A stretch of 64,000 nt of DNA from Eledone cirrhosa (Eukaryota). The stretch covers positions 21,142,001 through 21,206,000 of the forward strand of contig OZ024745.1 in assembly GCA_964016885.1 (NCBI GenBank), given 5' to 3'. Below the pieces are notes generated by a model that saw nothing but the letters and a program-made list of their open reading frames with translations, did no database searches and had not been told where the DNA came from. Position 1 is the stretch's first letter, and every line of letters starts with the position of its first letter. Positions 54,443 through 63,134 of the stretch are shown here, piece after piece. The position numbers and the translations under genes were made by a program.

Positions 54443-54908
54443 AATATATTGAAGATCTGTGCATAAGTTGTATTGAAATATTTTAAAGAATACATTTGTA
54501 CGGTTTATGGTAATCAATAGGTTGCTTTGAACTGCTTTGAAATATATCGGCAACAGTCGAAAAATGTCTCACAACAGTCTTGATTCTCGAAAATATGAGT
54601 AATGAAGATATATTAATTCGCCTTTTATATTAAACGAAGATGTGTATTCATGAACAGACCAAGTGGATACAGATGGAAAAGGTGAAGGAAATATTCTTTA
54701 GAACATTACGTTACTTAATCATTTTATTGTATGTTAATTATAACACTACCAGCTAGTCCTTGAGTACATATAGCGGAGTTGATACTGCTGTAAGTAGTCA
54801 GGCTAAACTGTTGTTGTTTCCTCACCTATGATGTTCAGACTAAGCATTAACGGCATCAATGTTTCAGTGTAACATCCATGACTAACTTATATATATATAT
54901 ATATATAT

Positions 54909-55467
54909 ATACATACATGTATACAGACGTACAGTAGTATGTATATATATATACACACATGCACACATATATATATGTACGTATGGATTCACCGAACATT
55001 TATTATAATGCTCGGTGTGTTTGTAAACAAACATCCCGTATTAAGCCGTAGTGTTCAGCAACCATCGTTGCTCGTTTGTTCAACACTGACAAAGGAACGC
55101 TGTACTAGTTTCAAGCTTATTAGCTATCGTCAGCAACGTATACCTTCCTGCCAGATTGTTGAACGTATATACTTACCTTATGCATATTAACGGCTGAGAA
55201 GCCCAATTTGCATATCGAGTGGGTTAATCGGCCGGGTGCACCGAAACCGGGTGCATCAATACGGGATGTTTGTTTACAAACACACCGAGCATTATAATAA
55301 ATGTTCGGTGAATCCATACGTATATATATATATATGTGTGCATGTGTGTATATATATATACATACTACTGTACGTCTGTATACATGTATGTATGTACGTG
55401 TACATACTTATATTTAAGTAACAGTCTTACTAGAGTGGGAAATGAAATTTCGTTTCATTTTTTCCGT
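54909..55467 (-). mobile_element. Non-autonomous fold-back cassette between (TA)n tracts, with HHR in the loop and a one-sided tail
   Basis: Arms 54909-55042 and 55258-55393 nearly identical in reverse complement; HHR 55097-55139; tail 55394-55467. Confidence 0.7.
55097..55139 (-). ncRNA. Minimal type I hammerhead ribozyme motif
   Basis: Minus strand ACGTTG-CTGACGA-T-AGCT(AATA)AGCT-T-GAAA-CTAG-TA-CAGCGT. Confidence 0.8.
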
Positions 55468-55932
55468 TATATATATATATATATATATATATATATATAT
55501 ATATATATATATATATATATATTATATATATATATATATATATATATATATATATATATATATATATATATATATATATATATATATATATATATTATAT
55601 ATATATATATTATATATATATATTATATATATATATGTATATATATATCCAGGGCGAAACGCGCGTCACCAACCAATAAACGTAATGAAGGAGTAACCAC
55701 TCGTCCTTGTTTTATTTCTCTCTCTCTCTCTCTCTCTCTATATATATATATATATATATATATATATATATATATTGTTATACTTTGGGAGGGTCATGTT
55801 GCCAATAAGAAACAAACGCACCAGTTGCTTTCACTTCAATTTAATTTATTATATATTTATAAATTTACAAATTTATAAATTTCTGGTTGATTGGTTGGTT
55901 CCACAACTAGATATTTGTTTATATATATATAT

Positions 55933-55977
55933 AGTCATAGTTCTTTCGTCACACACTCTGTGACCTCTTCAGTGACT
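55933..55977 (-). ncRNA. Minimal type I hammerhead ribozyme motif in the PLE 3' region
   Basis: Reverse complement of 60181-60225. Confidence 0.75.
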
Positions 55978-56282
55978 GGGGATTTCTTTCTTCGTTTCTG
56001 TGCCTTTCCTTTCTTCTATCCTACGCCATTTTGTTTGTGTGTGGGTTGCGTGCTCAGTATGCGCATGCGCCACATCCGGGTGTCTGTGTGTGTTTGTGTT
56101 CATTTTTCTATTTTTCTATTTATATTTTTCTATTTGTTTGTTTATTTATTTATTTATTGTTGGTTGGTTGTTTGTTCTATGTGTGTGTGTGTTTTCATTT
56201 TGTCTTGTGTGTGTTTTCATTTTGTGCGTGTTTTCAACTGTAAGTTGTTTGTTCTATGTGTGTGTGTGTTTTCATTTTGTCC

Positions 56283-62087: not shown

Positions 62088-62291
62088 TAGTCAGTTCTTA
62101 GATATGCCAGCTCTGTGTTTATAGTGTTGATGGTATCAGAGCCTTGGGACATATGAGCTTGTTAGGAATAATTTAATGTTGTCAGCAGGAATAATTATAT
62201 ATATATATAAATACAAGTAAAGTCTGTTTAGAAAAAGCGAACGAAGTTTTAAATTTAGTAAAAATAGAAACTTTCGCCGTATGTTTGACTA

Positions 62292-62497
62292 AAGAAATTT
62301 TAGCCTGATAGTGGGGTTTAGAACCCTCTACAAATGGAAAGGGATGAGTATTGATAAGTGGGCAAAGAAGAAGAGAAATGTTACACAACTTTAAATAAGT
62401 ATTATATCTCACGAGATATAAATTATTTCAGTTTAATACTCATCCTTTTCCATTTTAAAAGAGTTTTAAACCCCACTATCAGGTTAAATTATTTCTT
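62292..62497. repeat. Imperfect inverted repeat (~61-bp arms, 82-nt loop) between (TA)n tracts
   Basis: CCTGATAGTGGGGTTTA..GGATGAGTATT / AATACTCATCC..TAAACCCCACTATCAGG. Confidence 0.8.
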
Positions 62498-62544
62498 CGA
62501 AATTTCATATATATATATGTATATATATAATATATATATATATA

Positions 62545-62947
62545 TGAAGATAGACATAGAATATTCGAAAATATTCTGTATGTTTATAATAAACATTTTG
62601 AAGACCTAATCGCTATAGAATAGAATACGTCACGTATTACAATTAGATTCTCGATAAAAGCAAGCTCTTTCAAACCAGTTCCTGTACACAGCTAAGTATT
62701 CTATAAGTCTCTAGCTGTGTCATTCTCGATAAAAGCACTGGATATGTAATCCAGAAGATTTCTAATAAGAATGAAACGCGTAGGTTACTTCCCTTGCTTT
62801 TATCGAGAATCTAATTGTAATACGTGACGTATTCTATTCTATAGCGATTAGGTCTTCAAAATGTTTATTATAAACATACAGAATATTTTCGAATATTCTA
62901 TGTCTATCTTCACATATATATCGCTATTTCAGAGCATTTAATCCAAT
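62545..62947 (+). mobile_element. Non-autonomous fold-back cassette between (TA)n tracts: perfect 120-bp arms, variant HHR in the loop, tail shared with 991-1028
   Basis: Arms 62545-62664 and 62793-62912; HHR-like 62746-62788; tail 62910-62947. Confidence 0.72.
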
Positions 62948-63134
62948 ATATATATATATATAATATATATATATATATATATATATATATATATATATAT
63001 ATATATATATATATATATATATATATATGATGTACATTTCTCTCTATGTGCCATACGACTTGAAATGCTGATTCACCGTGTAACATTTTTTTGTTCCCCG
63101 GTTCTAAGTGTCATTTCATGGTTTGTTATATCCC

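Follow-up and report, generated by a model that had tools for sequence, protein, structure and literature searches.

How do distinct fold-back cassettes come to be stacked, one after another, between (TA)n tracts? The question is raised by a window of 64,000 nucleotides (nt) from Eledone cirrhosa (assembly GCA_964016885.1, contig OZ024745.1, positions 21,142,001 to 21,206,000; host genome size 3.0 Gb), in which a Penelope-like element (PLE) lies among several shorter units. A sequence-only reading had seen here successive (TA)n tracts between unrelated cassettes, and genome searches confirmed this layout: the seven cassettes in 54.9–63 kb are separate multi-copy families, none of them single-copy. 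Our answer, which we hold to be probable, is that the stack consists of independent insertions into TA repeats and that a two-armed insert is a pair of complementary DNAs (cDNAs) of one RNA, begun by a PLE-type enzyme at two fixed start sites 35–80 nt apart. Each family has two fixed 3′ ends, termed short and long, and the arms are named after them in the following description of the stack.

54888-54911: (TA)n, the target tract
54906-55467: cassette A; short-end arm on the minus strand, which holds a hammerhead and reaches further upstream; long-end arm 55258-55467 on the plus strand; inverted arms 54906-55042 and 55258-55396 (135/137); one-sided tail ~53–74 nt
55468-55648: (TA)n
55650-55718, plus strand: stub H, one-armed; hammerhead 3′ half (GAAAC-GCGC-GUC) plus end
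55739-55775: (TA)n
55772-60442: cassette P, the PLE
55772-59407, minus strand: PLE short-end arm, 5′-truncated; reverse transcriptase (RT), CX4CxxC linker and GIY-YIG in a frame at 56283-59411 of 1042 amino acids (aa)
59408-60442, plus strand: PLE long-end arm, an inverted partial copy; tail 60387-60442, the start of the open reading frame (ORF), about codons 8–27
60443-60493: (TA)n
60494-60689: cassette C; tail 60494-60556 (~63 nt); arms 60557-60622 and 60625-60689 (64/65), joined inside hammerhead stem II
60765-60822: (TA)n
61704-61774: (TA)n
61772-61968: cassette B, a Hydra-type stub; arms 61772-61828 and 61835-61891 (55/57); tail 61892-61968 (~78 nt)
61969-61986: (TA)n
61987-62195, minus strand: cassette E, one-armed short-end stub of a Hydra-type coding PLE
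62196-62209: (TA)n
62210-62506: cassette D, two-armed stub of a 259-nt tandem monomer; arms 62292-62352 and 62435-62497 (54/61)
62507-62545: (TA)n
62545-62947: cassette F; short-end arm 62545-62664 on the minus strand, long-end arm to 62947 on the plus strand; inverted arms 62545-62664 and 62793-62912 (120/120); one-sided tail 35 nt
62946-63028: (TA)n, which closes the stack

The stretch at 60823-61667 is no cassette of this kind.

Pairing of short and long ends

The observation that carries this answer is that, among the best-scoring candidates, all 49 clear two-armed insertions joined one short end to one long end (p = 2e-15 under independent choice). F accounted for 26 of 26 complete two-armed loci, with the short end at 273–284 and the long end at ~310; of its 34 loci seven were one-armed and one was interrupted, and L011, L021 and L022 (L-numbers denote fetched genomic loci) ran off the locus ends and were not scored. 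A contributed 11 of 11 two-armed loci (29 examined) and P 12 of 12 clear cases (36 loci, with L352 and L354 interrupted and L147 cut off). In D exactly one long end was present in 29 of 30 two-armed loci (52 loci in all), and two long ends in none. Inner breakpoints in F were scattered, often with an overlap of a few nt.

An inverted arm could also arise if a single cDNA folded back and the second arm were copied from the first, self-priming on an antisense template having been proposed for Adineta PLEs in the available part of PMC3846280. Such snap-back would suit both the clustering of B, C and D junctions at template hairpins or short palindromes and the private variants common to both arms, as found at L357, L358 and L166. 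However, in 12 of 26 F loci, as in window A and window P, the arm with the short end extends further upstream than the other arm and yet lacks the tail, which argues that neither arm was copied from the other; both fixed ends, moreover, abut TA. At L356 both arms have the same deletion-bearing monomer at rank 3, counted from the 3′ end, so the multimer appears to have been present already in the template RNA; two cDNAs begun 35 nt apart on a single multimeric RNA would give this picture. Twin priming is favored because short is paired with long, because either arm may reach further upstream and because of the rank match at L356, and we consider snap-back very unlikely. The pattern at L356 requires no rolling-circle copying of a monomeric circle, a process that may apply to homogeneous arrays.

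The footprint across the genome

The pattern of (TA)n, inverted arms, one-sided tail and (TA)n was borne out in the window for tracts, arms and tails, and it exceeds chance genome-wide. In 59 evenly spaced 10-kb stretches (589.8 kb), 34 of 62 fold-backs had TA flush at one side and 25–110 nt away at the other; random placements gave 1.04 of 62. The same sample held 27 insertions of B, 16 P-like ends, eight insertions of C, seven F-like, six of A, four each of D and E and one of H, and a rough extrapolation from it gives ~170,000 such inserts in the 3-Gb genome. At L386 a two-armed C insertion is interrupted by ~6 kb of later inserts at its TA-rich centre, and for this reason the elements appear to supply their own targets.

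Similar units had been named elsewhere in the window. Those at 44005-44152 and 50457-50583 stood, being tails with fold-back stubs that belong to other families (J and that of end clusters 15/19), whereas 991-1202 and 45460-45840 did so only in part. The latter was not recovered as a fold-back and is a one-armed cassette (45461-45840) holding a hammerhead motif with a long stem. At 993-1202 the long end of F, in the form of a ~35-nt tail, adjoins an inverted pair of 87 nt that has (TA)17 at its centre and whose right side continues without a TA tract; this may be a short cDNA that then switched onto target-flanking DNA.

It might be supposed that a DDE transposase moves the short fold-backs as DNA, which would make them miniature inverted-repeat transposable elements (MITEs). 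DNA transposons commonly target TA, the short copies of B and C are of uniform size, and several loop sequences are found repeatedly. However, the tail makes the ends asymmetric, arm lengths within a family run from ~55 nt to several kb, and long copies run into PLE endonuclease genes; the endonuclease upstream of B largely refutes this explanation, which we find barely plausible. One-sided tails and variable arms were found in place of symmetric terminal inverted repeats of fixed length, and the view that these units are not MITEs is supported by their asymmetric ends and variable inner breakpoints.

The Penelope-like element

Cassette P has the features of an endonuclease-bearing (EN+) PLE, namely a single ORF with RT and C-terminal GIY-YIG, and a pseudo-long terminal repeat with hammerhead, inverted copy and tail. 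Its inverted arms (55772-56750 and 59408-60386) extend over 979 nt at 99% identity, with a one-sided tail of 56 nt. The 1042-aa frame gave a weak RVT_1 match (E 2.5e-4, below the cut-off), and GIY-YIG and CCHH were read from the sequence. By motif it would be of the Neptune/Nematis type, having a CX4CxxC linker (CX2-5CxxC) and CCHH under the definition in PMC8557442. The element had been called intact and is not: the RT and endonuclease frame is open, but the start codon and ~240 aa are missing compared with six long copies with frames of 1277–1294 aa. Since the first Met of those long copies lies 24 nt before the short end, the tail corresponds to the beginning of the ORF, as in the Anolis element (PMC11167929), and the window copy is 5′-truncated. 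Short PLE copies have the same fold-backs and the same 56-nt tail and serve as a positive control. The family is young, given its 63 scored matches at 98% or more identity. Upstream of the RT, at 58970-59400, the frame holds a long Asn/Thr-rich low-complexity stretch, which recalls the N-rich inserts of Adineta PLEs described in PMC3846280.

Stumps of coding elements

The sequence-only reading had left the short cassettes as either non-coding fold-backs mobilized in trans or extreme 5′-truncations of PLEs, and both options apply: B, E, probably C and the PLE mini fold-backs are truncations, and A, F and D are passengers. Its idea of passengers sharing the PLE architecture is upheld for A, F and D, which have PLE-type ends, but not for B, E and probably C, which are stumps of coding PLEs.

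Of 20 long B copies, 13 have a Hydra-type endonuclease directly upstream, and in four of 20 E loci an endonuclease of this type lies upstream on the same strand, through a TA/TG-rich untranslated region (UTR). Judged from sequence, B and E are stumps of coding Hydra-type PLEs, not passengers. C is probably the end of a Hydra-type PLE as well: two of six long copies have in common, 2.5 kb upstream and beyond other inserts, an endonuclease with 1 kb of UTR (81% identity), and the interrupted UTR makes the link weaker than for B and E. Upstream of these cassettes the parents have a C-terminal endonuclease with a CxCX5C linker (weak for C), and this motif would place them in the Hydra clade. They resemble Hydra-clade PLEs, as described in the accessible part of PMC8557442, in that endonuclease and in (TA)n insertion, and differ from the published ones in being mostly stumps of 130–210 nt, assigned by motif.

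Window B is joined inside stem II of a hammerhead with a U3-A8 core, a core described in PMC4209133 and also carried by the long B copies; 26 of 30 copies stop within ~50 nt of one point inside stem II and four of 30 are long (non-palindromic query). Long C copies have the full hammerhead, longer relatives of H the whole motif, and the sole two-armed copy of E (L226) a tail of ~80 nt. In B, C and H the junction falls upstream of the predicted hammerhead cleavage site; together with the stops of D, treated below, these positions are consistent with uncleaved templates and with hairpin-guided stalling or joining. The tail hairpin of Hydra elements follows the short end in B and E and is degenerate in the window copies of C and J.

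Gene-less tandem monomers, probable passengers

A and F are built of monomers of 424 and 310 nt, in arrays of up to seven (A) and 24 (F) units per arm, every unit with a minimal hammerhead and a palindromic helix III. By their gene-less monomers with a predicted type I hammerhead they fall in the non-LTR retrozyme type (lacking long terminal repeats), A lying slightly above its ~170–400-nt range, and they share tandem arrangement, hammerhead and stable fold with the metazoan retrozymes of Li 2026 (10.64898/2026.07.22.740005) and, in the part available, Cervera 2020 (PMC7229834). The F monomer folds stably (z = -6.2). A subtype of F at L006 has the canonical CUGAUGA core, a closed stem II and a compensatory change in stem I; core and compensatory change support the predicted hammerhead fold. 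The L006 subtype dominates an independent deep sequencing run, 12 contigs of which hold the short end with TA. Three other runs yielded one low-depth contig each (two with variants of the deep run), and what might have been a sign of wide distribution was read as possible carry-over.

Sister families came from the random sample. At L283 (~5960-7330) a two-armed relative of F has 318-nt monomers, 62% identity to F overall and a U3-A8 core; the end region is best kept and the short and long ends are again present. At L284 (~190-1650) a two-armed relative of A has 467-nt monomers with local matches of 67–69%. Two side observations concern F: L168 resembles F joined to a truncated Hydra-type endonuclease, without a clean end, and at L169 ~17 nt of the left flank of an F array recur inverted in the right flank, past the TA tracts.

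D is of another make. Its full monomer contains a 73-nt tRNA-like cloverleaf with A and B boxes (found by ARAGORN in 24 of 30 loci and in one of eight short-copy loci), set on a basal stem of ~20 bp and followed by five Ts, with a whole-monomer z of only -1.8. In 24 of 30 copies the sequence runs on upstream of the cloverleaf into conserved monomer, and tandem two-armed arrays occur; most short copies end on the acceptor stem's 3′ side. No hammerhead core was found on reading the 259-nt monomer, and none by Rfam over the window copy. Because copies continue upstream of the cloverleaf, form tandem two-armed arrays and lack a hammerhead, D is neither a classical short interspersed nuclear element (SINE) nor a retrozyme. 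It has tRNA-like A and B boxes as tRNA-derived SINEs do (PMC8969392, in the part available) but differs from them in that the module is not at the 5′ end but inside a permuted monomer with a five-T run after it, and in having inverted arms and two fixed ends of PLE type in place of the 3′ tail of a long interspersed nuclear element (LINE). The 80-nt filler of the window copy (62356-62434) is unrelated to the monomer and is 79% like window ~61464-61536, 900 nt upstream; it is possibly captured local DNA, or the two are copies of another repeat.

The gene-less nature of A, F and D is where a further alternative has to be weighed, by which all cassettes are stumps of coding PLEs, these three being terminal repeats of their parents whose arrays expanded in place, once inserted, through unequal crossing-over. 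B, E and probably C did seem gene-less until long copies were fetched, variant patterns are periodic in L167, L165 and L359+L162, and local amplification of PLE termini has been proposed in the preprint 10.64898/2026.07.22.740005. However, the fetched flanks showed no coding parent of A, F or D, and none of 34 F loci had coding sequence upstream within them; arrays reach 24 monomers with scattered inner breaks in both arms, and the rank-matched variant of L356 places the multimer in the template. We therefore regard this alternative as unlikely.

Hammerhead motifs

Hammerheads had been claimed for four cassettes. Complete type I motifs were present in the PLE (twice), A and E, but the core of the window F copy is mutated, only the 3′ half remains in B, C and H, and D has none.

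55097-55139, minus strand: hammerhead of A, type I, CUGACGA core, palindromic ACUAGU helix III
55933-55977, minus strand: PLE hammerhead copy 1, from the pattern scan
60181-60225, plus strand: PLE hammerhead copy 2, from the pattern scan
62032-62087: hammerhead of E, complete motif
62746-62788: hammerhead of F, mutated core CAGAAGA (U4A)

The 589.8-kb sample contained 35 hammerhead-like motifs, against 2, 1 and 1 in three shuffles. The proposed enrichment near (TA)n was confirmed by the pattern scan, with TA within 250 nt downstream of 29 of 35 motifs against a background of 26%, some of the tracts being internal to elements. Rfam gave no hammerhead at gathering level, with none among the 150 of 353 window matches listed and none over 61960-62500; HH9 appeared at E 0.15, on L006 only, and the top window matches among those listed were microRNA (miRNA) models below threshold. 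Since Rfam lent no threshold-level support, the hammerhead calls rest on pattern scans.

Points that weigh against the twin-priming reading

Several findings speak against the reading advanced here, or at least against its generality. The loci were the 40 best-scoring candidates per search rather than all copies, and many copies are one-armed. In D, which is older and more eroded, the second end was at the short site in only 14 of 29 loci. A clear rank match was found at one locus only, L175, L176 and L359+L162 not being rank-matched, and the 10-monomer periodicity in L359+L162 indicates later local duplication. Of three mixed-family junctions one was short with long (L165, P with F) and two were short with short (L073, L305), and these junctions gave no assignment of a partner enzyme to A, F or D, none having been tied to them. 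The Hydra tail hairpin is absent from A, D and P and loose in F. The palindromes might also be assembly artefacts from chimeric long reads; we find that hard to credit, as the arms differ from each other, fixed family-specific ends recur at dozens of loci and the junction of short end and TA is present in the independent run. Clustering by single linkage of 1953 cassette ends merged short and long ends with internal TA tracts, and its same-cluster counts were not used.

Proposed mechanism and relation to known systems

In the mechanism that we propose, a PLE-type enzyme would cut both strands of (TA)n. A single uncleaved and often multimeric RNA would serve as template for both DNA ends, one priming at its upstream site and the other at its downstream site, and the resulting cDNAs would be united head-to-head, in many cases at a template hairpin (hammerhead stem II, tRNA acceptor stem) that stalls or anneals them. 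Trans-mobilization of A, F and D would act via the end region, with the window PLE family as a candidate mobilizer only. Flanking TA tracts and TA-rich stretches inside the elements would then supply new targets, and the stack would grow. More tentatively, and with less than even confidence, PLE enzymes may host a broad class of gene-less, circularly permuted passengers whose sole defining feature is an end module with two start sites. The hammerhead would then be replaceable (D having in its place a tRNA-like fold, which host RNase P/Z or RNA polymerase III could use to make the RNA), and each insertion would be obligate asymmetric twin priming on one multimeric RNA.

Much of this is of known type. 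In the available parts of PMC3846280 and PMC8557442, EN+ PLE insertion units consist of an inverted 5′-truncated copy and a one-sided tail, and ours are like them in the inverted partial copy, the tail at one end in the ORF start, (TA)n targeting, hammerheads near the ends and trans-mobilization via terminal repeats. They are unlike the units published there in that short and long pairing is counted (49/49 clear), tails run to ~80 nt and two cDNAs are favored over self-priming. In vitro the Anolis Poseidon PLE cuts both strands, starts reverse transcription at two sites bounding the tail and uses uncleaved RNA (Frangieh 2024, PMC11167929); a dimer was predicted and no strand difference in start site was found (PMC11167929). 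One site per strand per insertion, which we infer here, is not stated in that paper. PLEs have been proposed as mobilizers of retrozymes, with support from co-occurrence and terminal-repeat homology (10.64898/2026.07.22.740005 and PMC7229834), whereas in A and F the arrays themselves bear the footprint of PLE integration, their cleavage and circular RNA being putative. Non-autonomous Chlamys elements such as MRC1 are non-coding PLE passengers with head-to-tail multimers (PMC8557442, part available). Already in print, then, are the inverted one-tailed layout, TA targeting, hammerheads, non-coding PLE passengers and the retrozyme–PLE hypothesis. In the literature, supplements and Repbase aside, we found no PLE end footprint on retrozyme arrays, no twin-priming account of PLE inversions and no tRNA-like PLE passenger; Repbase or subscription papers may already hold these families. 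New here are the PLE footprint on retrozyme arrays and family D, the rest being mostly of known type.

Other features of the window

31947-35449: LINE with endonuclease, RT and zf-RVT frames
37716-38873: second, broken relative
4472-9067: tandem array of 36-nt units
21574-22424: tandem array of 31-nt units
61012-61181: tandem array of 17-nt units
42214-42813, 50586-50770, 54060-54253 and 63135-63185: copies of an abundant SINE-like repeat, matched by 149 fetched loci
63398-64000: open frame of 200 aa that runs off the window, with no Pfam match

The last of these we take to resemble a DNA-transposon protein. The fold-back call at 42214-42813 is due to an inverted pair of the SINE-like repeat.

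Significance

If the broader reading, with obligate twin priming across a class of gene-less passengers, is true it would settle how PLEs acquire their inverted shape and what mobilizes animal retrozymes, and both questions, the mobilizer of animal retrozymes and the origin of inverted one-tailed PLE insertions, are stated as open in the literature cited. The genome offers a countable footprint that links retrozymes and PLEs, with exact candidate RNA start sites at monomer positions 275/310 in F, 371/424 in A and 220/259 in D, and family D suggests a PLE passenger with a tRNA-like module. Annotation tools could file such inserts as MITEs, SINEs or miRNA hairpins. A recent annotation of octopus repeats counted, in its available part, 893 unclassified SINE and 65 MITE families among recently active repeats (PMC13282606), and these may include such units.

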